A stretch of DNA of 64,000 nt from Afifellaceae bacterium (lineage in GTDB: Bacteria; Pseudomonadota; Alphaproteobacteria; Rhizobiales; Afifellaceae): assembly GCA_965216515.1 (NCBI GenBank), contig OZ244173.1, forward strand, positions 2,547,588 through 2,611,587, in the 5' to 3' direction. The notes under the pieces were generated by a model, which worked only from the letters and a program-made list of their open reading frames with translations, was not told where the DNA came from and searched no databases. The number at the start of each line of letters is the position of its first letter. Position 1 is the stretch's first letter. Shown here piece after piece: positions 3,705 to 40,568 of the stretch. Both the position numbers and the translations under genes were made by a program.

Positions 3705-4970
3705 TCAGGTATTCATCGAATCGAAAAATTCACTGTTCGATTTGGTCTGCTTCAGCTTGTCGAGCAGGAACTCGATCGCATCGACCACGCCCATCGACGA
3801 CAGGATTCTGCGCAGCACAAACACCTTCTGCAAATCGCCTTTCGGCACCAGAAGCTCTTCCTTCCGTGTCCCGGACTTCAGGATATCCATGGATGGGAAC
3901 ACCCGTTTGTCGGCGACCTTGCGATCCAGCACGATCTCCGAATTGCCCGTCCCCTTGAACTCCTCGAAAATCACCTCGTCCATCCGGCTCCCGGTATCGA
4001 TCAGCGCTGTCGCGATGATCGTCATCGACCCGCCTTCCTCGATATTCCGCGCCGCGCCGAAAAACCGTTTTGGCCGCTGCAGGGCGTTGGCATCCACACC
4101 GCCCGTCAGCACCTTGCCCGAGGACGGCACCACCGTGTTGTAGGCCCGGCCCAGCCTGGTTATGGAGTCCAGCAGGATCACCACGTCGCGCCCGTGCTCC
4201 ACCAGCCGCTTGGCTTTCTCGATCACCATTTCCGCGACCTGCACATGCCGCGCCGCCGGCTCGTCGAACGTCGAAGATATTACTTCGCCGCGCACCGTCC
4301 TTTGCATGTCCGTCACCTCTTCGGGACGTTCATCGATCAACAGCACGATCAGGTAGGCCTCCGGATGATTGCTGGTTATCGACTTGGCAATATTCTGCAA
4401 CAGCACCGTCTTGCCGGTCCTTGGCGGTGCGACGATCAATCCCCGCTGGCCCTTCCCCAGCGGTGCGACCAGATCGATCACCCGCGCCGACATATCCTTC
4501 ACGGTCGGATCGTCGGTCTCCATATTGAACCGCTCATCGGGGTAGAGCGGCGTCAGATTGTCAAAGTGGACCTTGTGCCTTGCTTTTTCCGGGTCCTCGA
4601 AATTGATACTGTTGACCTTCAGCAACGCAAAATACCGCTCGCCCTCCTTGGGGCTGCGGATCTGCCCTTCGACCGTATCGCCGGTCCGCAGCGAAAACCG
4701 GCGGATTTGCGAAGGTGATACATAGATATCATCCGGTCCCGGCAGATAGTTGGCGTCGGGAGATCGCAGAAAACCGAATCCGTCCTGCAACACCTCCACC
4801 ACGCCTTCGCCGATGATGTCGATATCCTGTTCCGCCAGGTTCTTGAGTATGGCAAACATCAATTCCTGTTTGCGCAAAGTGCTGGCGTTTTCCACCTCGT
4901 GTTCCTCGGCAAAGGCGAGCAACTCCGTCGGCGACTTCGCTTTCAATTCCTGTAATTTCATTTCAGACAT
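3705..4970 (-). CDS. rho: Transcription termination factor Rho
   Basis: The ORF 3705..5132 contains the full Rho (RNA-binding domain, Walker [10 protein letters not shown]-terminal ...FFDSMNT). The start is placed at the internal Met [10 protein letters not shown] (ATG 4970..4968), giving ~421 aa, typical of Rho. The 54-aa track extension upstream is Ser/Gly/Arg-rich and unlikely to be coding. Confidence 0.9.
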
Positions 4971-5210
4971 GGTCTCAATTCCGGAAGGACGGCAAAATGC
5001 GGGTATTGGGTGCAGCGGCGCTGTGCGATCGTCGCGAGGCTCGATGGTTCGTCGTATTTCGGAAAACCGGAGGAAAAGCCGCTCGGATCCTGAAGACCCA
5101 TTCGCAGACCCCGCCCCGGAAAAGGGCTTCACACAGCGTCGGAAACGCTAGGATTGCCTTTAAGATAATCCCACATCGCCGATTCGACAAGTGGCAATTC
5201 CGGCACCCCG

Positions 5211-5633
5211 TTAAAACGGTTTCACCACCACCATCACGACGATCCCGATCATCAGCACCGTCGGCACCTCATTGACGATCCTGTAGTACCGCGCCGGCCG
5301 CGTATTGCCATCCCGGGCAAACGTCTTCACCCAGCCCGCCAGCATCCCATGAAATGCGCTCAGGCCCACCACCAGCACCGCCTTGACGTGAAACCAGCCT
5401 TCCGTCCAGCCGCCCGATTCCACCGCCAGCCATACCCCAAACACCCAACTGCCGATCATCGCCGGCGTCGCGATCCCCTTCAGCAGCCGACGCTCCATGA
5501 TCTTGAACGTTTCCGACTGGACCGATCCCGCATCCGCATCCGCGTGATACACCATCAGCCGCGGCAGATAGAGCAGGGCGGCCATCCAGGAGATTACCGC
5601 CAAAATATGCGCTGCTTTCACCCACACCATCAC
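5211..5633 (-). CDS. hemJ: Protoporphyrinogen IX oxidase HemJ family (UPF0093/TIGR00701-like membrane protein)
   Basis: 140-aa polytopic membrane protein ([31 protein letters not shown]...). Its start overlaps the hemE stop by 4 nt. The hemE-hemJ pairing is common in alpha-proteobacteria. Confidence 0.75.
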
Positions 5634-6679
5634 AATCCGCGCACCCGGCGAACCAGTGCCCCGACGTGCTCAGGCGGCGTATCCGGCTGTATTCCGTGAC
5701 CAAGGTTGAAGATATGCGGATGCCCGTCCATCGCGCCCAGTATGCGTTCGACGCCGTCCTCCATTGACCGCCCGCCCGTCATCAGCCGCAACGGATCGAG
5801 ATTTCCCTGCAATGCCTTGTCCGTCGCTTGTCGGGCCGCCGCCAGCGGCATTGTCCAGTCGATACCATACCCGTCCCCCCCGGTTGCCGCCGCATAGGCC
5901 GCCAGCCTTTGCCCGCATCCCTTGGCAAACAATATGATCCGCGCATCCGGCCGCCGGCTCCGGACACCGGCCACGATCGCCGCCACCGGCGCAACCGCCC
6001 ACCGCTCAAACAAATCATCATCCAGTACCCCGGCCCAGCTGTCGAATATCTGCACCGCATCCACCCCGGCATCGATCTGCCCCACCAGATAATCGATCGA
6101 AGCTCCCACGAGTATCTCGATCAGCGTCCCGAACCCTTCCGGATCCGCAAGTGCCAACAACCGCGCCGGCCTCTGGTCCGGCGTCCCCCGACCCGCAACC
6201 ATATAGGTCGCCACCGTCCAGGGCGCCCCGCAAAACCCGATCAGCGCCTTTTCGCCATCCAGATTTTCGCGCACCCGCGACACGGTTTCCAGCACCGGCG
6301 CCAGATGCCTCATCACCCGCGCCGGCTTCAGCCCCGATACCGCACCCGGCGACAACATCATCCCATTCCCCTGCGAAACGGCGAGCGCATCCAGGACCGG
6401 GCCTTCACCGGCTTCAAACCGCACCTTCTGTCCCAGACCGTCCGGGATCACCAGAATGTCGGAAAACAAAATCGCGCAATCGACATCGAACCGATGCACC
6501 GGTTGCAACGTCACCTCTGCTGCCAGCTTTGGCGAATAGCAAAGATCAAGAAACGATCCCGCCGCCGCGCGGACCTTTCGGTATTCGGGTAGATACCGTC
6601 CCGCCTGACGCATGAGCCAGACCGGTGGCGGCGTAACGGCTTCGCCCGCCAGCACACGCGCAAGACTGGTTTTCCTCAT
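5630..6679 (-). CDS. hemE: Uroporphyrinogen decarboxylase
   Basis: 349 aa with the N-terminal signature [16 protein letters not shown] and full-length similarity to HemE. Confidence 0.9.
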
Positions 6680-7077
6680 ATCGACTTCAACCCTTCTTTT
6701 TCAAAACCGTCTAGATTCTTTATGTTGATTCTTTTGGGCCGGGGATAAGAAGGATTATGCCTTGCCCACATTTTGCGCCTGCCGCCGCCCTGGCATTGCG
6801 GCGCACCCCACGCCCCGGCATTATGTGGACGAATTTCGGGATAAATCGGAATTTCCATTTATTTTCAAGGTATTAATGATTTCTGGAAATCACGATATCC
6901 ACGCAATTGAGCCAGCTTCTTTTGTACAATCCGGTTGTCACCAGCCTTCCGATCACCATCTGCATCTTGTCCCCGTTGCATTCAACTGTTGATCTGGATT
7001 GAAAAGCGGGCGACATCAACCGCCATGACGCCTCACCGGCGCGATTTGTCCGACCAACACACACAGTCTTCGACAGC
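6680..7077. other. Putative chromosomal replication origin (oriC / Cori-like) in the hemE <-> DUF299 divergent spacer
   Basis: The flanks follow the conserved alpha-proteobacterial origin gene order (hemE | ori | DUF299-maf-aroE-coaE-dnaQ). An AT-rich ~60-bp stretch lies at 6841-6900 (about 35% GC). Three 7/9 DnaA-box-like 9-mers: cGGGGATAA at 6740-6748, TGTGGAcgA at 6824-6832, aTATCCACg at 6895-6903. Two GANTC sites sit in a GATTCTTT direct repeat (6714-6721, 6727-6734). An inverted repeat GATTTC-tg-GAAATC lies at 6878-6891. Confidence 0.5.
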
Positions 7078-7908
7078 TTGTCCAAACGCCGCTTCTTCCA
7101 TCTTCACCTTGTCTCCGACGCCACCGGCGAGACCCTCGTCAGCGTGGCCCGGGCCGCGGCGGCGCAGTATGCCGCCATCAACGCCATCGAACATATTCAT
7201 TCCCTGGTCCGCACCCGCGCCCAGGCCGAGGCCGTTGCCCGCAAGATCGAGGATGCGCCGGGGATCGTTCTTTATACCCTTGTCGACGAGGAGACGGCGG
7301 CGGCGCTGGAGACGGAGTGTACGAAACTTGGCGTCCCCACCGTTTCGGTGCTGGCGCCGGTGCTGAATGCCTTCCAGTCCTATCTCGGTGCACCGTCAAC
7401 CGGCCGCGTCGGCGCCCAGCATGCGCTCGATGCCGACTATTTCCGCCGCATCGATGCGCTCAATTTCACGCTGGCCCACGACGATGGCGCTTTGCCGGAA
7501 AACATGGACGACGCCGATGTCGTCATCGTTGGCGTCAGCCGGACATCCAAGACGCCGACATCGATCTATCTTGCCAACCGTGGTGTGCGGACCACCAACA
7601 TGCCGCTTGTTCCGGGTGTCGAACTGCCTGAAAAGATTGTCAGCGCCCGCAAGCCGCTGGTCATCGGTTTGGTCGCCAGCCCCGACCGGATTGTTCAGAT
7701 TCGCGAACATCGCGTCCTCGCCATGAATGCCGACGAGCGCGTCGATTCCTACACCGACCGCACCGCCGTCGCCGAAGAGGTTGCCGCCAGCCGCAAACTG
7801 TGCGCACGCAACGGCTGGCCGGTGATTGATGTCACACGCCGCTCCATCGAGGAGATTGCCGCCGCGATCCTCGGCCTTCTTGCCCAACGCCGGGCGGCCG
7901 GCCCATGA
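7078..7908 (+). CDS. DUF299 family protein (putative pyruvate,phosphate dikinase / PEP synthetase regulatory kinase-phosphorylase; homolog of the first ORF after Caulobacter Cori)
   Basis: 276 aa beginning MSKRRFFHLHLVSDATGETL with P-loop-like GVSRTSKTPTS. It has a TTG start at 7078. An in-frame stop lies just upstream, so no ATG alternative exists. Confidence 0.8.
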   Translation: MSKRRFFHLHLVSDATGETLVSVARAAAAQYAAINAIEHIHSLVRTRAQAEAVARKIEDAPGIVLYTLVDEETAAALETECTKLGVPTVSVLAPVLNAFQSYLGAPSTGRVGAQHALDADYFRRIDALNFTLAHDDGALPENMDDADVVIVGVSRTSKTPTSIYLANRGVRTTNMPLVPGVELPEKIVSARKPLVIGLVASPDRIVQIREHRVLAMNADERVDSYTDRTAVAEEVAASRKLCARNGWPVIDVTRRSIEEIAAAILGLLAQRRAAGP

Positions 7909-8495: not shown

Positions 8496-9334
8496 TCGGC
8501 GCGCAACCGCGCGCCTGCGTCGTCGGCTGGCCGATCGCCCATTCACGCTCGCCGCTGATCCATGGCCACTGGCTGGAACGGTACGGGCTGTCCGGTTCCT
8601 ATGGCCGCCATGCCCTGGCACCCGATGACGCAGAGCGGTTTTTTGCCGACCTCGGCGGTCATGGCTATGTTGGCTGCAATGTCACCCTGCCGCACAAGGA
8701 GACCGCCTGGCGGGCGCTGGATCGGGCGACGCCGATCGCCGATCGGCTGCGCGCCGCCAACACCTTGTGGCTGGAAGACGGGATCCTGTGTGGCGACAAC
8801 ACCGATGTTTACGGTTTTCTTGCCAATCTCGACGACCGGGCAGGCGGCTGGGACAGCGGCGGCCCGGCGCTGGTGATCGGTGCCGGCGGTTCCGCCCGCG
8901 CGGTTGTCCATGCCCTGGTCGATCGCGGCCTTGGTCCCATCCATGTCTTGAACCGCACGCGCGATCGCGCTGTCGCGCTGGCCGCCGACATCGACGGGCC
9001 GATCTCGCCGGCCGGCCTCGATACGGTCAATGACGCGATCGCGCATGCGACCCTTGTCGTCAACACGACATCGGCGGCCCTGAAGGGTGAAGGCGATCCG
9101 CTGGCCATCGACTGGCGGCGGGCAAGTTCCGCGGCCCTTGCCGCCGACATCACCTATGTGCCCCTGATGACCCCGTTCCTGGCGGCTGCCGCCCAGGCCG
9201 GACTGCCCGTGTGCGACGGCCTCGGCATGCTGCTGCACCAGGCGGTGCCGGGATTTGAGCGCTGGTTCGGGCGCCGGCCGGAGGTCGACAACGCCCTGCG
9301 TGAACGGGTGATCGCCGACCTGGAGGCCGGCTGA
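8492..9334 (+). CDS. aroE: Shikimate dehydrogenase
   Basis: The ORF 8264..9334 contains AroE (GWPIAHSRSPLIHGHWL..., NVTLPHK, GAGGSARAV). The start is placed at GTG 8492 (VIGAQPRACVVGW), overlapping the maf stop (GTGA). The upstream track extension is Arg/Pro-rich. Confidence 0.85.
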   Translation: MIGAQPRACVVGWPIAHSRSPLIHGHWLERYGLSGSYGRHALAPDDAERFFADLGGHGYVGCNVTLPHKETAWRALDRATPIADRLRAANTLWLEDGILCGDNTDVYGFLANLDDRAGGWDSGGPALVIGAGGSARAVVHALVDRGLGPIHVLNRTRDRAVALAADIDGPISPAGLDTVNDAIAHATLVVNTTSAALKGEGDPLAIDWRRASSAALAADITYVPLMTPFLAAAAQAGLPVCDGLGMLLHQAVPGFERWFGRRPEVDNALRERVIADLEAG

Positions 9335-12954: not shown

Positions 12955-14214
12955 ATGGCCCCCGATGATCGCCGCAACACGACGGCCAGTTCCGATCCAG
13001 GTCCGGCTTCTCCCGCCTCCCGAGGAACAGACACCTTGCGTGCCGTGTCATTTTCGGCCCTCCGCGGCTGGGCGCAAGATGATCATTGTGCCGCTTTTGC
13101 CGCCTTTCTGAAGAGCGCGGAACATATTGGCGCCGCGCCCCGAAATGCCGCCGGTGCCGGCCAGCCCGGCAATGCGCCGAAAACCCGCGCCCACGGGATC
13201 AGCGGTTCCGGCCTTTGTGCCGTCGCCCGCAGCGCCCTGGCCGCGAAAGGCCAGGGGCTTGCGTCCGATCCCGGCCGGGCGCGCGCGTTTTTTGAGCGCT
13301 GGTTCCGTCCCATGCGTATCGTCGCTGACGGATTTTTCACCGCCTATTTCGAGCCGGAGGCACCGGCCAGCCGGACGCCGACCTCGGCGTTTCCCGTTCC
13401 CCTTTACCGCCGGCCCGCCGATCTGGTCGACGTCGGTGACCACAACCGCCCCGCCGGCTGGGATCCGGACATCCGGTTCGCTGCAAAGTCGGCCAACGGC
13501 CTTGAACCCTACGCCGACCGCGCCGCGATCGAAGGCGGCGCGCTTGAAGGTCGCGGGCTGGAACTCGCCTATGTCGCCGATCCGGTGACCGCCTTTTTTA
13601 TCCACGTTCAGGGGTCGGCCCGCCTGCGCTTCTCCGACGGCACCACCCTGCGGATCGCCTATGCGGGCAAATCCGGGCATCCCTACACCTCGATCGGCAA
13701 GCGGGCGGTCGCCTGCGGCTATCTCCATCCCGACCGATGCGGCAAGACGGAGCTGCAGGCCTGGCTTGCCGCCAATCCCGGACCCGGCCGCGACCTGATG
13801 CACGAAAACCGGTCGTTCATCTTTTTTCGCCCGGTCAACGGGCTTTCGGAATCCGACGGTCCCGTGGGCGCCGGCGCCGTCAGCCTCACACCCGGCCGCA
13901 GCCTGGCGGTCGACCGGCGGTGGACGACGTTTCACACCCCCGTCTGGATCGATGCGGCCGGAGTTCCGGATCCCGATGACCGGCCGCGTGAGACCCGCAA
14001 CGATGCGCCGGTCGGTGTGCCCGACGACATTCAAGGCGCTTCGCGCGGCGGCCGCTTCGCCCGGCTGATGGTCGCCCAGGACACCGGCTCGGCCATCGTC
14101 GGCCCGGCCCGCGGCGATCTTTTCTTCGGCGCCGGCGAGCGGGCAGGTGATCTTGCCGGTACGGTCCGCGCCCCCGGCGAAATGACGTTGCTCGTCCCGG
14201 TTCCGGAAGGATGA
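12955..14214 (+). CDS. mltA: Membrane-bound lytic murein transglycosylase A
   Basis: 419 aa with the MltA-type core (...AYFEPEA..., ...GKSGHPYTSIGKRAV...) and a 3D-domain-like C-terminus. It follows the Tim44-like gene, as in other alpha-proteobacteria. Confidence 0.75.
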   Translation: MAPDDRRNTTASSDPGPASPASRGTDTLRAVSFSALRGWAQDDHCAAFAAFLKSAEHIGAAPRNAAGAGQPGNAPKTRAHGISGSGLCAVARSALAAKGQGLASDPGRARAFFERWFRPMRIVADGFFTAYFEPEAPASRTPTSAFPVPLYRRPADLVDVGDHNRPAGWDPDIRFAAKSANGLEPYADRAAIEGGALEGRGLELAYVADPVTAFFIHVQGSARLRFSDGTTLRIAYAGKSGHPYTSIGKRAVACGYLHPDRCGKTELQAWLAANPGPGRDLMHENRSFIFFRPVNGLSESDGPVGAGAVSLTPGRSLAVDRRWTTFHTPVWIDAAGVPDPDDRPRETRNDAPVGVPDDIQGASRGGRFARLMVAQDTGSAIVGPARGDLFFGAGERAGDLAGTVRAPGEMTLLVPVPEG

Positions 14215-14218
14215 AGCG

Positions 14219-14788
14219 ATGGCCCGCCGCAAGCTGACGCCGGAGGAGCTGGCCCTGTGGCGCAAGGTCCAGGAGACGGTGACCCCGCTCGCCGCGCCGA
14301 TCCGCAAGGCGGCGACACCGGTTCCGTCCCGTCCCGGACCGAAAAAACCGGATTCGGCAGGGCCCGGTTTGGCCGCTTCTGGATCGTCCGGGCCCGGACA
14401 ATTCCGGACCGCAAGCCAGCCGCAACCAAAGCGCGCGCCATCGGCCGGGTCGCCCCTGGAACCCAGGCTGCGCCGCCGGCTTGCCCGCGGATCGCGCCAG
14501 GTCGATGCCCGTATCGACCTCCATGGCATGCGCCAGGCCGAAGCCCGCGCGGCGCTTGAACGGTTTCTGCGCGATGCCCGGGGCCGCGACGCCCGGCTGG
14601 TGCTGGTGATCACCGGCAAGGGGCGAAGCGGCGAGGCGGGTGGCGGCGTGTTGCGCGGCGCGCTGCCGCGTTGGCTTGCCTTGCCGGAATTTCACGGGCT
14701 GGTGGTGGGATTTGAAGAGGCCAGCCGCCGTCATGGCGGCGCCGGTGCCTTCTATGTCAGGTTGCGGCGATCGCGCGGCGCGGCGTGA
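14219..14788 (+). CDS. Smr domain-containing protein
   Basis: The C-terminal Smr domain reads IDLHGMRQAEARAALERFLRDARGRDARLVLVITGKG. Confidence 0.75.
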   Translation: MARRKLTPEELALWRKVQETVTPLAAPIRKAATPVPSRPGPKKPDSAGPGLAASGSSGPGQFRTASQPQPKRAPSAGSPLEPRLRRRLARGSRQVDARIDLHGMRQAEARAALERFLRDARGRDARLVLVITGKGRSGEAGGGVLRGALPRWLALPEFHGLVVGFEEASRRHGGAGAFYVRLRRSRGAA

Positions 14789-15747
14789 CGGCTGGCATCG
14801 GCGCCGTAGTAGGTGACGTAGCGCGGATTGATCGCGCTGACCGGCAGCACCATCATCACGTCGGTGGTATTGAACTGGTCGTCGACCACCGCACCGTCGC
14901 CGACATAGGCGCCGAGCCGCAGATACCCCTTGATCAGCGGCGGCAGGGCGCGCAGCGCCGCGCGCTGGTCGATCTTGTCGGCGGCCACCCGGTTCATGTC
15001 GACATATCGGTGATCCAGCGCCCGCACGTTCCAGCCGTCCGGTGCGCCGTGGAAATGGTGAAGATAACTGAGCGCCATGGCGAGCCTGTCCGGGTCGGTA
15101 CCCTCCAGGCTTGCACAACCGAACATTGCGTCGATCCGGTGCATCAGCACATAGGACCAGTTGCCGTGCCACAAAAGTTCGACCGTCCGCTTGTTGCGGT
15201 AGGGCGCCAGCACGCAGGACCGGCCCAGTTCCAGGAAGTTGATGTCGCGATGGCCCTCGATCAGCGGTGCGATGTCATATTCATCGGCGCTGTAGAATCC
15301 CCCGTTCGGTTCCGCCACGTCCTGGCGCAACAGCCGGTAGGTGCCGACGATCTTCGGTTTCTGGCCGGTCAGCGTGCGCCGTCGGCTGCCATGGTCGAAC
15401 ACCAGCAGATGGTCGCAGATGGCGTCGAAGGAATCGATGTCGCGGCGCTTGTGCTGCGCCCGCGCATCCGCAATTGCCGCCAGTTCCTCGTAGAAAACCT
15501 GGTACCGCAGCGCCTGGGCGCGACGCACTTCCGAACGGCTGCGCGCCAGACGCACCTCAAGGTCGCCGATTCGGCCCAGCGTGCCGATCGTCCGGTGGGC
15601 GCCGTGAAACCTTCTTCCGCCGGGAAACGTTCGCTGGCCGGGAAATCGCCGGGCCCGGCCCGCCGGCAATGCCTGCCGGCCAAGCAGAAAGCTTGGCGAG
15701 AAGCGGCGCGCCAGTTTGCGGGGAGAAAATCGTTGCCGGCCTTGCAT
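14752..15747 (-). CDS. OlsB-like GNAT N-acyltransferase (ornithine lipid / aminolipid synthesis family, COG3176); start uncertain
   Basis: The core reads LEVRLARSRSEVRRAQALRYQVFYEELAA...GTYRLL.... The first ATG is at 15747 (MQGRQ...); the track M at 15756 is TTG. The R-rich N-terminal ~60 aa may not be translated. The 3' end overlaps smr convergently by 37 nt. Confidence 0.6.
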   Translation of the reverse strand: MQGRQRFSPRKLARRFSPSFLLGRQALPAGRARRFPGQRTFPGGRRFHGAHRTIGTLGRIGDLEVRLARSRSEVRRAQALRYQVFYEELAAIADARAQHKRRDIDSFDAICDHLLVFDHGSRRRTLTGQKPKIVGTYRLLRQDVAEPNGGFYSADEYDIAPLIEGHRDINFLELGRSCVLAPYRNKRTVELLWHGNWSYVLMHRIDAMFGCASLEGTDPDRLAMALSYLHHFHGAPDGWNVRALDHRYVDMNRVAADKIDQRAALRALPPLIKGYLRLGAYVGDGAVVDDQFNTTDVMMVLPVSAINPRYVTYYGADASRHAAPRDRRNLT

Positions 15748-16074
15748 GGGTTCCAATCGGATCGCCGAGAAAATTCAACGGCCAGAAACCGGATTATACA
15801 GTGATTTGCGATCCGGAGGAACCGCCGTCTTCGGCGCGGCGCCGGAAACGCGCGATCTGTGGAAAGCCGACAGGCAGGCAGGACGCGGTCGAAATGCCCG
15901 CGCCCCTTTGCGGCGCGGCGATCGTGACATCCCGATTGCGGGACCGGCCGCCGCGCGTTCCGTCGGCCGGCCGGTTCATTGCCGCCGGCGCCTTGAGTTC
16001 GCCGGTTGGCCATGACCGCCGGGCACGCCGTGCCCGTGCGACCGGGAATTCGTCCAGGATCCGCCCGGGCGGCC

Positions 16075-20136: not shown

Positions 20137-20256
20137 ACCCGCTCCCGTTTGGACCCGCCTGCCGGCGCCGGATACAATGCCGGGATGTCCGCCCGCCCGC
20201 CGGCTGCGTCGTCCGATCGCGGCCCTCGGGTTGCACGGTCATCCGGCCGTCGGCCG

Positions 20257-21117
20257 CTAGCCGTCGATCGCCTTGCCAATGATGGCGATCGCCTTCTGGT
20301 AGACGCTGGCGGCATTCCATGCTTTCAGCGCCCGAAAATTTCGGTCCCCCGGTTGAAAACCGGCGCCGCGCCGCCAGCCATGGCTGCGCAGGAAATTGGC
20401 CGTGGAGGCCAGGGCGTCAGCCTTGGTGCGCAGATCCAGCCGGCCGTTGCCATCTCCGTCGCGGCCAAATTTCAGGACATTGCCCGGCAGAAACTGGGTT
20501 TGGCCCACCTCGCCGTGCTTGGCGCCGACGGTCTTGCCCGACAGCACCCCGTGATCGACTAGTTGCAGCGCGGCGTAGAGATGGCCGGTGAAGAACGCTG
20601 GCCGGCGGCAGTCGTAGGCGAGGGTCGCGGTTGCCGACAACAGATTGGAATCGCCCATGAAACGCCCGAACGCCGTTTCCATGCCCCAGATCGCGATCAG
20701 CGGCCCGGCCGGCACGCCGTATTGCCGTTCCAGGCTGGCAAACAGGCCGGCGTTGGATTTCTTCAGCTTCCGGCCCTGGGCGATGATCGTCTTGGCGCCG
20801 CGCACCCGCATGAATTTCTCGAGTGAATATTTAAAGCTCTTCTGGCCTCGGTCGGCACGGATTGTGGCGTTGGCATAGCGCGTGCCGGCGAGCGCCGACA
20901 GCCCCCGCTTCCCGATTCCCCGCCGTTTGGCCTCAACGGCGAATTCGCGCTTCCATGTATCGAATCCGGAGGCGTTGTTGCCGCATCGCGCCGCCGCCTC
21001 GCCGGCCGGCAGGACGAGGAAGACCGCCAGGCAGACCGTGGCGAGTCGCGGATGGGGGCGGAGAAGGGCCGCAGCCGGGAATCTGCAGCGGGACAGGACG
21101 GGATGGGCTTTGCGCAT
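20257..21117 (-). CDS. Lytic murein transglycosylase (MltB / SLT_2 family) with signal peptide
   Basis: The C-terminal 286 aa of ORF 20257..22356 carry the domain, beginning MRKAHPVLSR...LAVFLVLPAGEAAARC (signal peptide), with IWGMETAFG and YDCRRPAFFTG motifs. The start is placed at ATG 21117. The upstream part of the track ORF overlaps gshB on another frame. Confidence 0.75.
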   Translation of the reverse strand: MRKAHPVLSRCRFPAAALLRPHPRLATVCLAVFLVLPAGEAAARCGNNASGFDTWKREFAVEAKRRGIGKRGLSALAGTRYANATIRADRGQKSFKYSLEKFMRVRGAKTIIAQGRKLKKSNAGLFASLERQYGVPAGPLIAIWGMETAFGRFMGDSNLLSATATLAYDCRRPAFFTGHLYAALQLVDHGVLSGKTVGAKHGEVGQTQFLPGNVLKFGRDGDGNGRLDLRTKADALASTANFLRSHGWRRGAGFQPGDRNFRALKAWNAASVYQKAIAIIGKAIDG

Positions 21118-24967: not shown

Positions 24968-25017
24968 ACGGCGGCTGTACGATTGCGTGCATGAGGGCGT
25001 ATGCGCGGTCCGGGCGT

Positions 25018-25464
25018 TCAGCTTGCGGCCTGCCGCGCACCGATGCCGGGATCCGGATCGCCGGCGAACCGCTCCGCGGCGACCATGCCGGCCACCATCG
25101 CCGCGACGAAGAGCGCTGTTTCCCAGCGCCCCCACGCAAGACCGGCGATTGCCGGACCGGGACAGAAACCCGAAAGCCCCCAGCCGATGCCGAACAGCGC
25201 CGAACCGCCGATCAGCTTGGCGTCGAGGCGCGTCGCGTCCGGCAGCACGAACCGGTCGGCGTAAAGCGGTTTGCCTCGCGCCTGGACGATGCGAAAGCCG
25301 AGGAAGGCGACCACCGATGCGCCGGCCATCACCAGGATCAGGCTAGGGTCCCACCCGCCGGCGAGGTCGAGGAAGCCGGCGATCTTGGCCGGGTTGGTCA
25401 TGTCGGCGATCACAAGCCCGACACTGAAGACGAATCCGGAAAGGAAGGAAAACAGCGTCCGCAT
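25018..25464 (-). CDS. YeeE/YedE family membrane protein (second of a split pair; putative thiosulfate/sulfur-compound transporter component)
   Basis: Start at ATG 25464 (MRTLFSFLSGFVFSVGLVIADMTNPAKIAGFLD). It lies 2 nt downstream of the preceding paralog's stop. Confidence 0.7.
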   Translation of the reverse strand: MRTLFSFLSGFVFSVGLVIADMTNPAKIAGFLDLAGGWDPSLILVMAGASVVAFLGFRIVQARGKPLYADRFVLPDATRLDAKLIGGSALFGIGWGLSGFCPGPAIAGLAWGRWETALFVAAMVAGMVAAERFAGDPDPGIGARQAAS

Positions 25465-25466
25465 GG

Positions 25467-25901
25467 TCAGGCGCCCGGGATCATGTGCCGGGTAACGAAA
25501 ACGGTAAGCGCCGCCACGCCGACAAATACGCCGGTCGCAACCAGCGAACGCCGTGAAAGCCGGGCGATGCCGCACACCCCGTGGCCGCTTGTGCAGCCCG
25601 ATCCGATGACCGTTCCGACCCCGACCATCGCTCCGGCGGCGGCGAGCGTCACCGGTCCGGCGATGAGCGTTTGCTCCGGCAGGCCGGCGCGCGCCGACAA
25701 GGCGAGCGGCCCGGCCAGCATCCCCACCAGAAAGGCGCCGCGCTCGCCGCGAAATCCCTGCGGATTGAGACTGACGAGCGTCTTCAGGATCGTGCTGATC
25801 CCGGCAAGCCGCCCGTTGGCAAGCAGCAGCAGCACAGCCGCCAACCCGATTACGATTCCGCCCGACAGCGCCGCCACCGGTGTAAATTGCGTTTCAAGCA
25901 C
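25467..25901 (-). CDS. YeeE/YedE family membrane protein (first of a split pair)
   Basis: 144 aa (...GSGCTSGHGVCGIARLS...), the conserved Cys-containing motif of YeeE/YedE. Confidence 0.7.
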   Translation of the reverse strand: MLETQFTPVAALSGGIVIGLAAVLLLLANGRLAGISTILKTLVSLNPQGFRGERGAFLVGMLAGPLALSARAGLPEQTLIAGPVTLAAAGAMVGVGTVIGSGCTSGHGVCGIARLSRRSLVATGVFVGVAALTVFVTRHMIPGA

Positions 25902-26002
25902 TGGAGTCTCCCGAACTGTCTCTCACTGCCGCCGGCCACCGGTCGTCACTCCGGCAATGAACGCCGGGGGGAGGCTGCCGGGACAGGATTGCTCATATCG
26001 GT

Positions 26003-27205
26003 CTAGGCGGCGAGATCCGCAACCACGGAATCCAGAACCGCCGCGCCGGCCGGCGTCGCCCTCAGCCGGTCGCCGTCGGCCGCCTCCAGCATGCCGTGTT
26101 CGCGCAACGCCGCGATCCGCGCCGGATCGATCGCCCGTCCGCTGAGCGCCGCGTAGCGCGCCTGCGAGATGCCTTCCGTCAGCCGCATGCCCATCAGCAG
26201 ATATTCGTCGCCGCATTCTTCAAGGCTGAGAACCGTGTCGGCCAGCCAGCCGGCACCTGTCTGCTCGACCCGTTCAAGCCAGTCGTCCGGCGCGGCTGTG
26301 CAGACGGTTGCCACCTTGGTTCCCGCTTCCGAAAACCGGCCGTGGGCGCCGGGTCCGACGCCGACATAGTCGTTGTAGCGCCAGTAGGTCATGTTGTGCC
26401 GGCTTTCGTCGCCGGGCCGGGCATAGTTGGAGATTTCGTAGCGGCGAAACCCCGCGTCCTGGCATAGCGACACCGTGGCGGCGTCGAAATCGGCAAGACG
26501 CGCCGGCGCCGGCACGGCGAGTTTCCCGGCCCGGTGGAGCGCGTGATACGGCGTCCCCGGCTCGATGGTCAGCTGGTAGAGCGACAGGTGTCCGCCGGCA
26601 AACGCGAAGGCTTCGGCGAGTTCCGCCTCCCACGCGGGAAGTGATTGGCCGGGCCGGGCATAGATCAGGTCGAAGGAAAACCGGTCGAATGTCGACGCCG
26701 CCACATCCACGGCCTGCCGCGCCGCGGCGACATCGTGCAGACGCCCCAGGGTTTTCAGATCCGCGTCGTTGAGGGCCTGGACCCCGATCGACACCCGGTT
26801 GACGCCGGCCGCGCGATAACCGGCGAAGCGCCCGGCCTCGACACTCGACGGATTGGCCTCGAGCGTGATCTCGGCATCCCCGGCAACGGTCCAGCCCGCG
26901 CCGACGGCATCGAGGATCGCCGCCACCGTCGCCGGCGCCATCAATGACGGCGTGCCGCCGCCCAGAAAGACGCTGGTGACCGTGCGCCCCGGTGTGCGCG
27001 CCGCAGTCGCCGAAAGCTCGCGGGCGAAGGCTTGCGCGAAAGCGGCCTCGTCGACCGGTGCGTGGCTGACATGGGAATTGAAATCGCAATAGGGACACTT
27101 GGCGGCACAGAATGGCCAGTGAATATAGACCCCGAACGCGGTCTGCGCCTGCGGCGGCAGCGGCGGCGCCGGAATGCCGGCCCCGCCGCCGGTCGCGCTA
27201 CCCAT
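26003..27205 (-). CDS. hemW: Radical SAM heme chaperone HemW (coproporphyrinogen III oxidase-like)
   Basis: The track ORF 26003..27625 contains HemW. The start is placed at ATG 27205 (MGSATGG...[22 protein letters not shown], radical SAM CxxxCxxC). The upstream 140 aa are Arg-rich and overlap rdgB. Confidence 0.85.
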
Positions 27206-34841: not shown

Positions 34842-36908
34842 TCAGTCGCCGGATGCTGGCGGGTCCGGCTTCTTGTGCGGCCCGGTGTTCGGCGCGCTGG
34901 TTTTCCGGCGCTCCACCAGCGAAAGGGCGCGCTGCAACACCCCGGCGGCATCGCGCACCTGGTCCGCGGTCATGGTGTCCACGTCCAGTTCCAGGTTCAG
35001 CCCCGGCCCGTCGGCGCTGAGCCGCTGCTGCTGCCGCGCTGCTGTTTTCAGGTCAAGCGCCTCATATGTGGCCAGCGGATAGGCGATTCCCTTGACCTCG
35101 ATCTTGCCCATCTCGCGGCAATCGATGGCGTCGCGGACCAGCGCGTGCGTTTCATATGAAATCAGGATCTGGCCCGGATCGGCGGCGGTCTGGATTCGCG
35201 ATGCCGCATTCACCGTCCCGCCGATGATCGTATAGTCCATCCGCGCGTCGCTGCCGAAGTTCCCCACCGTGCAGTATCCGGTGTGGATGCCGAACCGGCA
35301 GTTCAGCGGCCGTTCGATCCCGGCCCCGCGCCACTTGCCCGCCAGATCGTTCAGCCGGTCGCGCATGGCGATCGCCATCGTCACGCAGGCCAGCGCATCG
35401 GCTTTCGCCCCGTTGGTCTCCGGATCCCCGAAAAAGATCATGATCGCGTCGCCGATATACTTGTCGATCGTCGCGCCATGCGCCAGCGCAATCTGCGTCA
35501 TCTCGTTGAGATAGTCGTTCAGGAGCCCGGTCAGTTCTTCCGATTCCATTCGGTCGGCGGTTTCCGTGAAGCTGACGATATCGGAGAAGAAGACGGTCAG
35601 TTTCTTGCGGGTGCTGGCGACCTCGACCGCCTGCCGGCCGGAAAAGATCGATTCGTAGACCTGTGGCGAGAGATATCTGGACAATTGGCCCGAAAGCCGC
35701 TGAAGCCAGTCCGTCTGTTTCTGCAGCTCCGCCTCGCGCGCATCGATCTCGTCCATATATCCCGATAGCGCCTGGGCGATGTCGCCGATTTCGTCGCGGC
35801 GCCTGTCGGCAAGGTCGCGCCGGCGATCCTGCGAATAGGCGCGCAGGGCGGCGCGTACCCTGTCCAGCCGCCGCAGCACCAGGCGCTGCAGCAGGATCCA
35901 GAGCACCACGCTGCCGGCCAGGGTTGCGGCGACGACCGCCGTCATCACCACGATATTGTTGCGGGTCGCGGAGGCGACGAGCTGTGTTTCCGCGGTGAGT
36001 TCGGCACTGGCGCGCGAAAATTCGGTGGTTGCGGTGCTGATGAGCCGGTTTGCGATCAGCGAGTTTTCCTCGACCAGCGCCTTGATCTTGAACGCGTTGG
36101 TCAGTTCGGTGGATTTGTCCCGGAAGATATTGTCCTTCTGCGATGCCCAATATTCAAAAAACGCCGCGCCCTCCCGACCATCCGCAGCCGCCGCGCCCTC
36201 CGGTGTTGGCGCCGACACGATATCTTGCAGTCGGGCAACGCTTGCCTCGACCTGCTTCCTGTTGCGGGAAAACCGGGCGCGATTGGTATCGAGAATGGTC
36301 GCCAGAAGCCGCTGGATGGTGGCCGCCATCTGAAGCGGCGCCTGTTCCGCCTCGCTGCCGGCGGCATCCTGCCGCGCAATGTCGCGGGCCATCCGCCGGA
36401 ACGCCTCGATATGCTTTTCCAGTCGCTTGCGGACATCGATCTGCCGGCGCACGACCGTCGTCAGGCTGGTCTGGTTTGCCGCCAGCGCGGCGGCATTGTT
36501 CTTCAGCTTTTCGATGGCATCGGTATCGGTGACGAGTGCGCTGATATCGGCGATCAGCGCGTCTTGCGACCCGGTCTTGTCCTTGATCCGCGACAGCAGG
36601 GTCTCGAATTCGTAGCGGGTCGGATTGGTGCTCAGCGCCGGCGCGATGGCGATGCTGGCCGACGCTTCCTGGGAGAGCTGCGACAGCTTCACCAGCCGGG
36701 GCAGCGATTGGTCCCTGAGCGCGGTGATTTCGGTGCCCACGCGGCCCAACTGTTCGGCGACCACAAGCAGGCCCGCCAGAATCAGCACCGCGACACCGGC
36801 CAGGGCGGAGAACAACAGGGTCGAAATCCGGTAGCGTGTCCTGATCCGCCCGGCATTTTGCTCGCCGGTCGCAGGTGGCCCGGTTTTTCCCGCCGGCCCC
36901 GCCCTCAT
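34842..36908 (-). CDS. Membrane-bound class III adenylate/guanylate cyclase with periplasmic helical sensor domain and HAMP linker
   Basis: TM1 (ISTLLFSALAGVAVLILAGLLVV), a ~270-aa helical periplasmic region, TM2 and a HAMP are followed by the cyclase homology domain (KLTVFFSDIVSFTE...IGDAIMIFFG...GTVNAASRIQ). The ATG at 36908..36906 overlaps the TGA of the upstream SBP gene (TGATG); the track M at 36911 is TTG. Confidence 0.8.
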   Translation of the reverse strand: MRAGPAGKTGPPATGEQNAGRIRTRYRISTLLFSALAGVAVLILAGLLVVAEQLGRVGTEITALRDQSLPRLVKLSQLSQEASASIAIAPALSTNPTRYEFETLLSRIKDKTGSQDALIADISALVTDTDAIEKLKNNAAALAANQTSLTTVVRRQIDVRKRLEKHIEAFRRMARDIARQDAAGSEAEQAPLQMAATIQRLLATILDTNRARFSRNRKQVEASVARLQDIVSAPTPEGAAAADGREGAAFFEYWASQKDNIFRDKSTELTNAFKIKALVEENSLIANRLISTATTEFSRASAELTAETQLVASATRNNIVVMTAVVAATLAGSVVLWILLQRLVLRRLDRVRAALRAYSQDRRRDLADRRRDEIGDIAQALSGYMDEIDAREAELQKQTDWLQRLSGQLSRYLSPQVYESIFSGRQAVEVASTRKKLTVFFSDIVSFTETADRMESEELTGLLNDYLNEMTQIALAHGATIDKYIGDAIMIFFGDPETNGAKADALACVTMAIAMRDRLNDLAGKWRGAGIERPLNCRFGIHTGYCTVGNFGSDARMDYTIIGGTVNAASRIQTAADPGQILISYETHALVRDAIDCREMGKIEVKGIAYPLATYEALDLKTAARQQQRLSADGPGLNLELDVDTMTADQVRDAAGVLQRALSLVERRKTSAPNTGPHKKPDPPASGD

Positions 36909-37930
36909 CAACGGAAGGGCGGGCTGTACTGCAACCCGCCGTCACGCCACAGCCTGTTCAGGCCCCGCTTGACGTTGATGGCGCTCTCTTTGCCCAGGTA
37001 GCGATCGAAGATTTCGCCGTAGTTCCCGGAATTGGCGATAATCCGCAATGCCCAGTCCGCCTCCAGGCCCAGTTCCTTGCTGCTGTCCATCGGTTCGGCC
37101 CCGAGCAGACGCCGCACGGAGGGATCGCGGCTTTCAAGATGTTGCCGGTAGTTGTCCCGTGTGATGCCCCTTTCCTCCGCAAAGATGGTCGCGAAGATCG
37201 CCCAGCGGACGAGCGTCGCCCATTTCATGTCCCGGGTGTGCACATAGGCGACCAGCGGCTCCTTGGAGATGATCTCGTCGTGGAGCACGTAGTTGTCGGC
37301 GTCATCGACACCGGTCGTGCGGACGGAGGCGAGCACCAGCCGGTCGGTGGTCAGAAGATCGCATTTGCGGGCGAAAAACGCGGCATCGCGCCCCTCCGAC
37401 GATTCAAACGGCAGGACTTCCCAGTCCAGATTGTTGAAATTGATGAAATCCTCGAGGTTGGAGATCGTCGTCGTGGAGTGGGAGACGCAAACCTTGGCTG
37501 ATTTCAAATCCGACAGCGCGCCGGGCGCCGATCCCTTGTGGGAGAGGAATCCCTGGCCGTCATAGTAGAGGACGGCGGCCGGGATCAGGCTGCGGCTGAC
37601 GTCGCGGGAGAGGGTCCACGTCACATTCGAGACATAGATGTCGACATCGCCTTCGTGGATGCTTTGCAGCCCGTGCCGGATATCCACCGGCGAAAGCTCC
37701 ACCGCATCGCGGTCCCCGAACAGGCCGAGCGCGACGACGCGGCAGAATTCCGGGAAAAAGCCCTCATACCCGGTTTCCCCGATCCGCGTGTCACCGACCG
37801 ACCGGTTGCCGATGGCGCATCTGACATAGCCGCGATCGACAACCGCCTCCAGCACCTCGCCGGCATGCGCCGAAGTGCCGAGCCTGGCTCCGGTCGGGCC
37901 GGCAAGGATCAGGCCGGCGCACAGGGCCAT
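36908..37930 (-). CDS. Orphan periplasmic amino-acid-binding protein, AapJ-like (general L-amino acid ABC transporter SBP family) with signal peptide
   Basis: The start is placed at ATG 37930 (MALCAGLILAGPTGARLGTSAHA|GEVL, signal peptide). The mature part matches AapJ-type SBPs (TWTLSRD, YYDGQGF, IISKEPL). No permease or ATPase genes are in the window. The track ORF start at 38329 adds 133 non-protein-like residues. Confidence 0.7.
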   Translation of the reverse strand: MALCAGLILAGPTGARLGTSAHAGEVLEAVVDRGYVRCAIGNRSVGDTRIGETGYEGFFPEFCRVVALGLFGDRDAVELSPVDIRHGLQSIHEGDVDIYVSNVTWTLSRDVSRSLIPAAVLYYDGQGFLSHKGSAPGALSDLKSAKVCVSHSTTTISNLEDFINFNNLDWEVLPFESSEGRDAAFFARKCDLLTTDRLVLASVRTTGVDDADNYVLHDEIISKEPLVAYVHTRDMKWATLVRWAIFATIFAEERGITRDNYRQHLESRDPSVRRLLGAEPMDSSKELGLEADWALRIIANSGNYGEIFDRYLGKESAINVKRGLNRLWRDGGLQYSPPFR

Positions 37931-38337
37931 GGCGACCGGGCGGCAGTCTGACGCGATGCCGGCCAGCGCCGTCTGAACCACGGGCCGCCGGTCGGCCGGG
38001 CACCGGTTTTCATGGCGCCGGTCCGCCGGGCACCCGTTATCTGGATGGCCGGACGAGGCCGCGCCGCATTGCAAATTGCAGGCGCGCCGGATGATGCCAG
38101 CCATCGGACCTGACATCCGCAATGTCTGTGGGACCGCCCTTGCTTTGCCCCCGAACCGCAGGTTCGCCATCATTAACATCCCCTGCCGAGTATAGCATTT
38201 GTCGCCGGCCTGTGCACGCGGCCGGTTGCCGCCCCGCCGGGGCCTGATGTCGCGCGCCGGCGACCGCCCCGCCGCCTGCCGGGCGGCCCGAAAACGAACG
38301 GCCTTGACCGCGCGCCGCGCCGGGGCCATGGAGTGGC

Positions 38338-39039: not shown

Positions 39040-40568
39040 TTAGACGAGGCCGTTCAGATGATCGGCCAGCCGCAGCGTCAGCTGGGTCAGCGGCAGCGTC
39101 GGATTGACCTGCCCGTAGGTCGGGAAAATGCTGGATCCGGCTATATAAAGATTTGAAATACCATGCACTTTTGCGTTTCTGTCGACAACGCCCTGCTTGG
39201 CATCGTCGGCCATGCGGGTGGTTCCCATATGGTGGTTCCCGGCCACCTCATCCTCACCTGGACCCGGGAACGGGCGTTCGGATGAATAGACCCAGCGGGC
39301 GATCTTCATGCGCCCCAGATCCTGGCGGGCGAAGCGCGCCGCGATATGCGTCGCCGCCGCCGCGATCGTCCGCCGGTCAAGCGCTGACATCCGCCAGTCG
39401 AGTGCAATCCGCTGCCAGCCGAAAATGTCGGTTTGATCGGTGAGCCGGACCCGGCTGTCCGGGTTGGGTGCCTGGTCCGTTGTGACGTGAAGATGACCTT
39501 CGGCGCAGTAGGGATATTGCCGAAACCGAACCAGATCGATGCCCTTGCTCAGCCAGTCGGGGCTGCAAACGGCCTGCCGCAACCGGCCCGAAAAATCACG
39601 CGCCGCCGGCTTGATGTCCGGCAGGACACGCAATCCGAAATTCAGGACTTTGTGTTCCTCGACAAAATTCTCGCGCGCCCCGTAAAACAGATAATAATGC
39701 GGTTTCTCCGTCATTTCCTTGTAGGACAGCGCCTGTGTGATCCGGTCCCGGATCTTGTCCTCAAACACAATCTGACCGACAAAATGATGGGGATGTTCGG
39801 CGAAAAACCGGCCGACAAGGTCGTTTTGATTGCCGATACCCGCCGCCATCTGCGAATTGCAATTCAACAATATCCGCGGATTCTCCAGCCCGCCGGCTGC
39901 CAGAACAATGCGATCCGCCTGGAATTCCCGCCGTTCACCCGCAAAGCCGCGCACGACCAGCGTCCGCACGGCGTTGCGATCGTCGTCAAGCCGCAAGTCC
40001 GTCAAATTGGCATTCGTCAGGCAGGTGATGTTTCCGCGCGCGCAATCGCATCATGATATTTCTCCCCCAGCCGCGTCGGCTGGCTCCACAAAAACCGGTG
40101 CGGCTTCAGGCCAGCAGGCGAGACCAGCGCATCATCGAAGTCGCTCCGGTAGGGCGCTTCGATCCGCGCCTCCAGGTCGATATCGAGTATCTCCGCGGCA
40201 CGTTCCAGATAGGCGGACAGATCGCTGTGGCCGATCGGCCAGCCGCTAAACGGCACATGATCCCGTTTGACGAAATCCATCGGTTCAAGCGCCTGGCACC
40301 AGCCGGACCAGACGTTGGACGTTCCGCCAAAGAACCGCATCCGGCATTCGTCGAGCGGGAAATAGGCCCGCCCGGTGATCTCGCCGGAATACAGATCCTG
40401 CGATTCACCGGTGAAGTCGGTGTCGCCACCCTCCAGAAGCAGGACCTGCACGGTCCTGGATAGCGCCAGCGCCAGGGTGATTCCGGCAATCCCGGCGCCG
40501 ACGATGGCAACGTCGAATGTCCGGCCATCAAAGGCGCCGGTCTCCAGATCATGGAGATTGGCCAGCAT
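39040..40568 (-). pseudogene. GMC-family FAD-dependent oxidoreductase (choline dehydrogenase-like), split by a frameshift near 40020-40050
   Basis: The N-terminal fragment 40017..40568 (FDVAIVGAGIAGITLALA, FAD-binding) stops at ...ETSPA*. The C-terminal fragment 39040..40005 begins only with a TTG. Its frame read upstream gives ...GNITCLTNANLTDLRL, the expected GMC continuation (NLTVLT-like motif). It ends with HHMGTTRM...NLYIAGSSIFPT (GMC C-terminal motif). Confidence 0.6.

Follow-up and report, generated by a model that had tools for sequence, protein, structure and literature searches.

Introduction

Several bacterial solute-binding proteins signal through a partner in the membrane, as TorT does with the sensor kinase TorS, GlnH with GlnX and, in Vibrio, NspS and ScrB with the enzymes MbaA and ScrC. 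Reviews from 2021 (PMC8050422) and 2023 name chemoreceptors, sensor kinases, Ser/Thr kinases and enzymes of cyclic di-GMP (c-di-GMP; GGDEF/EAL) as the partners of binding proteins, and adenylate cyclases are absent from the partner classes in both. Here we analyse a 64,000-nucleotide (nt) stretch of the genome of an Afifellaceae bacterium (Alphaproteobacteria; assembly GCA_965216515.1, contig OZ244173.1, positions 2,547,588 to 2,611,587), hereafter the window, in which the gene of an AapJ-like binding protein overlaps that of a membrane-bound class III adenylate cyclase with a periplasmic domain of the TorS fold. To our knowledge, natural ligands are known for almost no bacterial membrane class III cyclases. 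We lean towards regarding this cassette as representative of the first family of binding-protein-gated adenylate cyclases, in which an AapJ-type protein would present an amino-acid-like ligand to a TorS-type sensor independently of any transporter, and as one of the output variants within a larger class of AapJ-like/TorS-type systems that seems not to have been described and whose members are mostly histidine kinases.

Results

The two genes overlap and are conserved as a pair

The cassette occupies the minus strand of the window (binding protein at 36908–37930, cyclase at 34842–36908) and comprises the following elements.

36908–37930, minus strand: gene of the AapJ-like periplasmic binding protein, 340 residues, with its start ATG at 37930 and its stop TGA at 36908–36910
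34842–36908, minus strand: gene of the membrane adenylate cyclase, 688 residues, with its start ATG at 36908–36906 and its stop at 34842–34844
36906–36910, minus strand: TGATG junction, where the binding-protein stop overlaps the cyclase start by one base

At the junction the minus-strand sequence is CCG TTG ATG AGG, with one base common to TGA and ATG. The original prediction, made from the letters of the window, had described this overlap, an AapJ-like protein with a signal peptide, and a cyclase built of a first transmembrane helix (TM1), a helical periplasmic domain of about 270 residues, a second transmembrane helix (TM2), a HAMP linker and a catalytic domain; all of these features are borne out by the analyses below.

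To survey the pair from the side of the cyclase, an alignment of the N-terminal 400 residues was scanned against one genome per species (185,579 species). This returned 14 loci, and in every one of them the binding-protein gene (63–75% identity) lies directly upstream on the same strand. Most of these loci come from alphaproteobacterial metagenome-assembled genomes (Aestuariivirgaceae, Hyphomicrobiaceae, Rhodospirillales and Geminicoccaceae); the cultured carriers are the Rhodobacterales Sedimentitalea sp. HM32M-2 and Primorskyibacter sp. S87, and single bins are labelled Competibacteraceae, delta proteobacterium and Gemmatimonadota. The TGATG junction recurs at three loci (L001, L004 and L013), a fourth (L002) has TAATG, and at the others a gap of roughly 10–50 nt separates the genes. 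From the side of the binding protein, two clade-specific motifs were scanned against a metagenome collection, yielding 53 loci, 41 of which have the 350 nt or more of downstream sequence that makes them testable. A cyclase follows immediately, in the same order and on the same strand, in 39 of the 41. The two exceptions are L058, where the binding-protein copy (253–1092) is truncated at about residue 258 and runs into unrelated sequence with no cyclase, being either a decayed copy or an assembly chimera, and L066, a more distant fragment of 56% identity. Adjacency thus holds in 53 of 55 testable independent loci with unrelated flanks, which argues against chance. Loss of co-conservation or of adjacency had been named beforehand as the outcome that would speak against a functional link; it was not seen at the 14 genome loci or at 39 of the 41 metagenome loci.

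An all-against-all comparison of the open reading frames (ORFs) at 15 genome-scale loci found only the two cassette genes, with their antisense shadow ORFs, in common; a third conserved gene, for instance one for a cAMP receptor, was not among the shared ORFs. The two genes behave as a mobile module. The family is rare, with 14 carriers among the 185,579 species genomes and about 176 protein clusters, mostly from uncultured Alphaproteobacteria. As a separate observation, the locus of Primorskyibacter sp. S87 (L014) holds two more class III cyclase-related ORFs (14553–15863 and, on the minus strand, 20180–21097), both within 10 kb downstream of the cassette and 35% and 29% identical to the catalytic region.

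The periplasmic domain of the cyclase is a divergent TorS-type sensor

An AlphaFold2 model of cyclase residues 1–400 (predicted local distance difference test, pLDDT, 79.5) is all-helical, and the periplasmic part has the fold of a stacked double four-helix bundle between two transmembrane helices.

35958–36755, minus strand: periplasmic TorS-type sensor, residues 52–317, a stacked double four-helix bundle

Fold comparison of this domain gave the following values, each with the extent of the match.

TorS sensor from the TorS-TorT complex (3O1H_A): 14.8, 227 of 270
McpS HBM domain (2YFA): 14.0, 216
PilJ (8WDF): 13.4, 221
E. coli TorS (3I9W): 12.1, 222

The sole relevant Pfam match of the domain is to TorS_sensor_domain (PF21689), at 16.3 bits for the full-length window protein and 19.4 bits for the isolated periplasmic domain, with a curated cut-off of 27. 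All 14 orthologs likewise match PF21689 below the cut-off (best E 1.1e-5), and one ortholog (P0027) carries a precomputed PF21689 match. A profile of the sensor found nothing significant among PDB sequences (best E 0.03, to unrelated helical proteins), so that the link to TorS rests on fold comparison and on profile searches. The latter were extended to 1.84 billion representative proteins and gave 45 matches, about 25 of which belong to the cyclase family itself (fragments included) and 20 of which lie beyond E 1e-7. All ten of the longest of these 20 distant matches are histidine kinases with PF21689 (26.9–51.6 bits), nine of them at 27 bits or more. We conclude that the sensor belongs, as a divergent representative, to the fold family of the TorS sensor. 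The comparison with TorT-TorS that had been drawn at the outset therefore goes beyond analogy, given the PF21689 matches of the orthologs and the reciprocal profile search.

Across 120 orthologs, conservation within the domain is concentrated in four patches (residues 64–112, 0.88; 151–166, 0.80; 206–217, 0.85; 264–298, 0.86), the catalytic domain scoring 0.84 and the remainder of the periplasmic domain 0.36–0.66. In 33 complete pairs, pairwise distances between binding proteins follow those between periplasmic domains (r 0.85; partial r 0.74) more closely than those between catalytic domains (r 0.67; partial r 0.34), a pattern that is consistent with co-adaptation of binding protein and sensor and that we regard as supportive only.

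TorS-type kinases also adjoin AapJ-like genes

We inspected the gene context of nine of the TorS-domain kinases, eight of which were informative (P0266 lies at a contig end). A binding-protein gene adjoins seven of the eight, AapJ-like in six cases and TorT-like in one. An SBP_bac_3 gene of 328–374 codons lies directly upstream on the same strand of P0268, P0276 and P0281; P0269 and P0280 each have two divergently transcribed SBP_bac_3 genes and P0270 has one; P0271 overlaps a TorT-like Peripla_BP_1/4 gene; and the short contig of P0275 holds no binding-protein gene. The loci with one or two AapJ-like genes (328–374 residues) are these.

L068, 3869–7304: TorS-type kinase with AapJ-like gene or genes
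L070, 1523–7678: the same arrangement
L071, 1504–6628: the same arrangement
L073, 2858–5890: the same arrangement
L077, 2719–7546: the same arrangement
L079, 2960–5959: the same arrangement

Five of the SBP_bac_3 neighbours (from L068, L070 and L071) were aligned with the window protein; they are AapJ-like, 34–42% identical to it over their full length, and keep the C-terminal GGLxYxPP motif. No importer genes stand beside the SBP_bac_3 neighbours of these kinases. That seven of eight kinases have an adjacent binding-protein gene supports the notion of the TorS-type fold as a docking platform for binding proteins, and supports a view of the cyclase family as an output variant of the same arrangement. 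We found no pairing of an AapJ-like protein with a TorS-type kinase in the reviews consulted on binding proteins in signalling, and such pairs may constitute a sizeable uncharacterised class of two-component sensors.

At three of these loci the binding-protein gene also adjoins a PALP gene (PF00291, pyridoxal-phosphate enzyme; L068 2334–3656, L070 127–1344, L073 205–1185), which in L070 lies beside trpA. These neighbours may hint at an amino-acid ligand class, or may be a coincidence.

The binding protein is predicted to be exported and to retain an amino-acid site

Over its full length the binding protein aligns with 4Z9N, an amino-acid-binding protein of Brucella (E 2e-70). It scores just under the Pfam cut-off for SBP_bac_3 (25.8 against 26.4 bits) and well under that of TIGR01096 (77.5 against 256 bits), and many of its orthologs, which are 65–78% identical and about 343 residues long, bear the JGI name 'general L-amino acid transport system substrate-binding protein'. 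M. tuberculosis GlnH (6H1U) is a weak match (E 4.5e-4). The orthologs have Sec signal peptides with AxA at their end, right ahead of the conserved (V/I)L(E/D)xV(R/V)DRGY that opens the mature protein, and the corresponding region of the window protein reads MALCAGLILAGPTGARLGTSAHA and then GEVLEAVVDRGY.

37862–37930, minus strand: signal peptide MALCAGLILAGPTGARLGTSAHA, followed by GEV..., as read from the sequence

There is no lipobox cysteine in register, and the protein is therefore predicted to be soluble and periplasmic. The translational start is slightly uncertain, with an alternative in-frame GTG at 37981. A public gene model (P0121, 421 residues) begins about 240 nt upstream of the start that the orthologs support, and looks too long given their length of about 343 residues and standard Sec signal peptide.

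The motifs TWTxSR (R109), TTT (153–155) and TTD (D196) are invariant in the cyclase-linked clade and are also present in 4Z9N. By homology with the HisJ/LAO-type site we take R109 to be the arginine that binds the alpha-carboxylate, D196 to be the aspartate that binds the alpha-ammonium group and the TTT loop to be part of the site. Because these Arg, Asp and Thr motifs are kept, the ligand is probably an amino acid or a close derivative with free alpha-amino and alpha-carboxyl groups. Four cysteines are likewise invariant in the cyclase-linked proteins, and the same four occur in the importer-type 4Z9N. The binding protein is unusually conserved for its kind, with a mean pairwise distance of 0.28 against 0.24 for the catalytic domain.

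The pair is not part of an importer operon

No ABC (ATP-binding cassette) permease or ATPase domain was found in any window neighbour scanned, and no ORF in the whole 64-kb window contains both a Walker A and an LSGGQ motif. The absence of ABC genes, initially described for 10 kb on either side, thus extends to at least 26 kb on each side. The window gene does not stand in an aapQMP-type operon, and such a context is conserved at none of the loci; no conserved importer gene lies near the pair across 15 loci. Eleven of the 14 genome loci have no ABC ATPase, and ATPase-like ORFs within 10 kb occur only in L001, L002 and L008. We rejected each of these as a partner. The L001 importer has a binding protein of its own (271 residues) and lies two unrelated genes (glutathione S-transferase and old-yellow-enzyme) away from the pair; the L002 ORF lies about 4 kb upstream and is not conserved; and the L008 ORF, also not conserved, lies about 8 kb off on the opposite strand. 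As a further observation at L001 (Aestuariivirgaceae; 3770–7087 and 13079–14647), the cassette lies about 2 kb downstream of this polar-amino-acid importer and is followed, 1.1 kb after the cyclase, by a CYTH-CHAD gene; importer and CYTH-CHAD gene are both without conservation at other loci.

When 72,556 plasmid and chromid records were searched at the protein level, the binding protein had 194 matches, all below 60% identity and those listed at 37–41%. Two of them were inspected and belong to operons of the order binding protein–permease–permease, one of which includes an ATPase gene as well. A simple neighbour-joining tree, drawn without bootstrap support, places the cyclase-linked binding proteins in a tight clade with a long stem, apart from importer-linked and kinase-linked proteins.

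The cyclase is predicted to be active

From its basic cytoplasmic N-terminus the cyclase runs through TM1, the periplasmic domain, which spans 266 residues, TM2, a HAMP-like helix-loop-helix and a linker to the class III domain.

36756–36830, minus strand: TM1, residues about 27–51, seen in the sequence and lying in a continuous helix (18–93) of the AlphaFold2 model, with a basic RIRTRYR before it
35889–35957, minus strand: TM2, residues about 318–340, a hydrophobic stretch inside a long model helix (244–360)
35709–35888, minus strand: putative HAMP domain, residues 341–400, helix, 12-residue connector and helix, with a DEIGxI motif
35613–35708, minus strand: conserved helical linker, residues 401–432, with a mean column conservation of 0.86 in 120 orthologs
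35079–35612, minus strand: class IIIb cyclase homology domain, CyaB-like, residues 433–610 (PF00211)
34845–35078, minus strand: C-terminal tail, residues 611–688, conservation 0.44, with no family match

The Pfam match to HAMP is weak (residues 340–381, 20.6 bits against a 25-bit cut-off). In the model the region consists of a helix to residue 360, a loop (361–372) and a helix (373–399), and JGI names the orthologs 'HAMP domain-containing'. The linker is presumably a cyclase-transducer element, a role we assign from knowledge of the family.

PF00211 (Guanylate_cyc) covers residues 433–609 (E 6e-28, 98.1 bits against a 21.9-bit cut-off), and the closest solved relative of the catalytic domain is P. 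aeruginosa CyaB (3R5G, E 1e-73). The motifs FFSDI, IDK(Y/F), IGD/VGD, DYTIIG and VNxASR align with 3R5G; in the window protein, FFSDI, IDKYIGD and DYTIIGGTVNAASR fall on identical or equivalent CyaB residues. We take these to be the two metal-binding aspartates, the Lys/Thr substrate pair that is the class IIIb signature, and the transition-state Asn/Arg. Since the catalytic motifs are intact, the protein should be an active homodimeric adenylate cyclase. A reading as guanylate cyclase was rejected, the substrate pair being Lys/Thr as in CyaB. There are at least 176 homologous protein clusters, and among the 120 listed all have a cyclase domain and nearly all are 620–700 residues long.

Genomic surroundings

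The cassette is embedded in a housekeeping region. One flank carries rho, maf, coaE, secB, rsmI, rph, hrcA, grpE and genes of an SPFH protein, a glyoxalase and a major facilitator superfamily transporter; the other carries a phosphoribosyltransferase gene, the split gene of a GMC oxidoreductase, alkB, the gene of a GT87 glycosyltransferase, dnaK, dnaJ, ahcY and a PAS histidine kinase gene. A scan of window ORFs found no protein that binds cyclic nucleoside monophosphates. The intergenic region 37931–38337 is shared with the divergent phosphoribosyltransferase gene and contains one sigma-70-like site (38216–38189), about 260 nt upstream of the binding-protein start.

38189–38216, minus strand: weak sigma-70-like promoter candidate, TGCACA-16-TATACT with TG, from a consensus scan only

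Elsewhere in the window, the GMC-family oxidoreductase gene (39040–40568, minus strand) is split over two ORFs in different reading frames, an N-terminal part that would bind flavin adenine dinucleotide (FAD; 40017–40568) and a C-terminal GMC_oxred_C part (39040–40005), and is either a frameshifted pseudogene or the product of a sequencing error. Two ORFs of coding-like base composition, at 24991–26145 (plus strand, 384 residues) and 8543–9238 (minus strand, 231 residues), have no Pfam match.

Discussion

The binding protein is best explained as dedicated to signalling and not to an adjacent importer, with the cassette as a self-contained two-gene sensory unit. Docking of the two proteins, the class of the ligand and whether cAMP synthesis rises or falls are matters of inference; we propose the following course of events. 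The secreted binding protein would capture an amino acid or a close derivative and dock on the dimer of the TorS-type sensor, as TorT does on TorS; the resulting change would travel through TM2, the HAMP region and the conserved helical linker to the CyaB-like class IIIb catalytic dimer, whose cAMP synthesis would be altered by activation or by inhibition. By analogy with TorT-TorS (PMC8050422), the binding protein may remain attached to the sensor, with a switch of conformation on arrival of the ligand. That the binding protein docks on the TorS-type sensor and thereby alters cAMP synthesis through TM2, HAMP and linker is, in our judgement, reasonably probable.

Several points weigh against this proposal. 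The match of the sensor to PF21689 is below the curated cut-off, so that formal membership in the Pfam family is not reached by sequence score, and the match to HAMP is below its cut-off as well. The distance correlation can be inflated by the wider divergence range of the periplasmic domain, and an importer that has no binding protein of its own may be encoded elsewhere in the genome. Small ligands bind directly to double bundles of the HBM type, that of McpS for one, and the sensor might thus need no partner. Two adjacent binding-protein/sensor-kinase gene pairs of P. aeruginosa do not interact (PMC11113362), hence adjacency alone is no proof of contact.

Three other explanations were considered, each of which we find improbable. 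The binding protein could serve only in transport, for an importer encoded elsewhere, its co-transcription with the cyclase reflecting shared regulation and not contact. The characterised and annotated members of the AapJ family do serve importers, the ligand-binding motifs are intact, adjacent binding-protein and sensor genes do not always encode interacting proteins, as in P. aeruginosa, and an importer may lie in the genome outside the 64-kb window. Yet we give this explanation little credence, as no conserved importer gene lies near the pair at 15 loci, the cyclase-linked clade is distinct from importer-linked proteins, the binding protein almost never occurs without the cyclase (39 of 41 loci), and other members of the fold family of the sensor also adjoin binding-protein genes; the overlapping or closely spaced genes, moreover, fit a need for matched amounts of both proteins.

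It is similarly doubtful that the double bundle senses a small molecule by itself, as the McpS HBM domain does malate, leaving to the binding protein only the buffering, scavenging or delivery of ligand, or something unrelated. The nearest profile relatives scanned are TorS-domain kinases and not HBM chemoreceptors, those kinases are themselves flanked by binding-protein genes, and a dispensable binding protein would scarcely be expected to come from a single tight clade so strictly paired with the cyclase. Nor does it seem likely that the binding protein has lost its role as an amino-acid receptor and acts independently of ligand, as a constitutive structural subunit or inhibitor of the cyclase that reports, for instance, the state of the envelope or its redox state through the four cysteines. 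Such a role would suit its unusual conservation (mean distance 0.28 against 0.24 for the catalytic domain) and its invariant cysteines, and TorT binds TorS even without ligand (PMC8050422). However, the four cysteines are also found in the importer-type 4Z9N and are thus a family feature, and the Arg, Asp and Thr residues that bind an alpha-amino acid are invariant, which argues that ligand binding has been retained.

The cassette lends itself to study: there are two genes and no other conserved partner, the soluble binding protein is open to ligand screening, a cyclase of solved structure is closely related to the catalytic domain, and two carriers are in culture. The cassette suggests that bacteria may turn a binding-protein signal directly into cAMP, a route that we have not found described; full-text literature searches turned up no account of a binding protein paired with an adenylate cyclase, in keeping with the initial impression that the pairing was not a described system for class III cyclases. 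The data also suggest a general role for the TorS-type fold as a platform on which two structural classes of binding protein dock, reused with different outputs. If true, this view would guide the annotation of many orphan AapJ-like proteins that are currently labelled as transporter components.

Comparison with known systems

AapJ and BztA of the aapJQMP-type importers share with the cassette protein their family, length, C-terminal extension ending in GGLxYxPPxR, cysteines and Arg/Asp/Thr motifs (37–41% identity); their genes precede two permease genes and usually an ATPase gene, whereas that of the cassette protein precedes a cyclase and the protein falls on its own branch. With TorT-TorS, which senses TMAO in E. 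coli and Vibrio parahaemolyticus (3O1H, 3I9W), the cassette shares the fold of the sensor. The binding proteins differ, TorT being of the class I sugar-binding type (Peripla_BP_1) and the cassette protein of the class II SBP_bac_3/AapJ type, and so do the outputs, TorS being a hybrid histidine kinase and the output of the cassette a class IIIb adenylate cyclase that would be reached through HAMP. Akin to the cassette protein, GlnH of the GlnH-GlnX-PknG system of Mycobacterium and Corynebacterium is an SBP_bac_3 protein that signals via a membrane protein and not an importer, and GlnX too has periplasmic four-helix-bundle modules (PMC8050422); there, however, GlnX recruits a separate cytoplasmic Ser/Thr kinase, while in the cassette sensor and enzyme form one polypeptide whose product would be cAMP. 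NspS-MbaA and ScrB-ScrC of Vibrio likewise consist of a binding protein encoded beside a membrane enzyme and controlling a nucleotide second messenger, and ScrB is also an SBP_bac_3 protein, but they work through c-di-GMP (GGDEF/EAL) and have dCache-like, not TorS-type, sensors.

On the side of the enzyme, the catalytic domain of P. aeruginosa CyaB (3R5G) is a close relative of that of the cassette (E 1e-73), with every catalytic motif aligned; CyaB differs in what we take to be a polytopic MASE2 membrane anchor and is not known to have a periplasmic TorS-type domain, a HAMP domain or a partner binding protein. Bicarbonate is reported to activate CyaB (Topal et al. 2012, as cited in PMC8230467), which makes a second input of this kind possible for the cassette cyclase. 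Finally, in the receptor adenylate cyclases of trypanosomes and the natriuretic-peptide receptor guanylate cyclases of animals, an extracellular binding-protein fold also controls a class III cyclase across one membrane. In those receptors a class I binding fold is fused into the same polypeptide, whereas the cassette encodes its class II binding protein separately, as a diffusible partner that would dock on a sensor made of helices.

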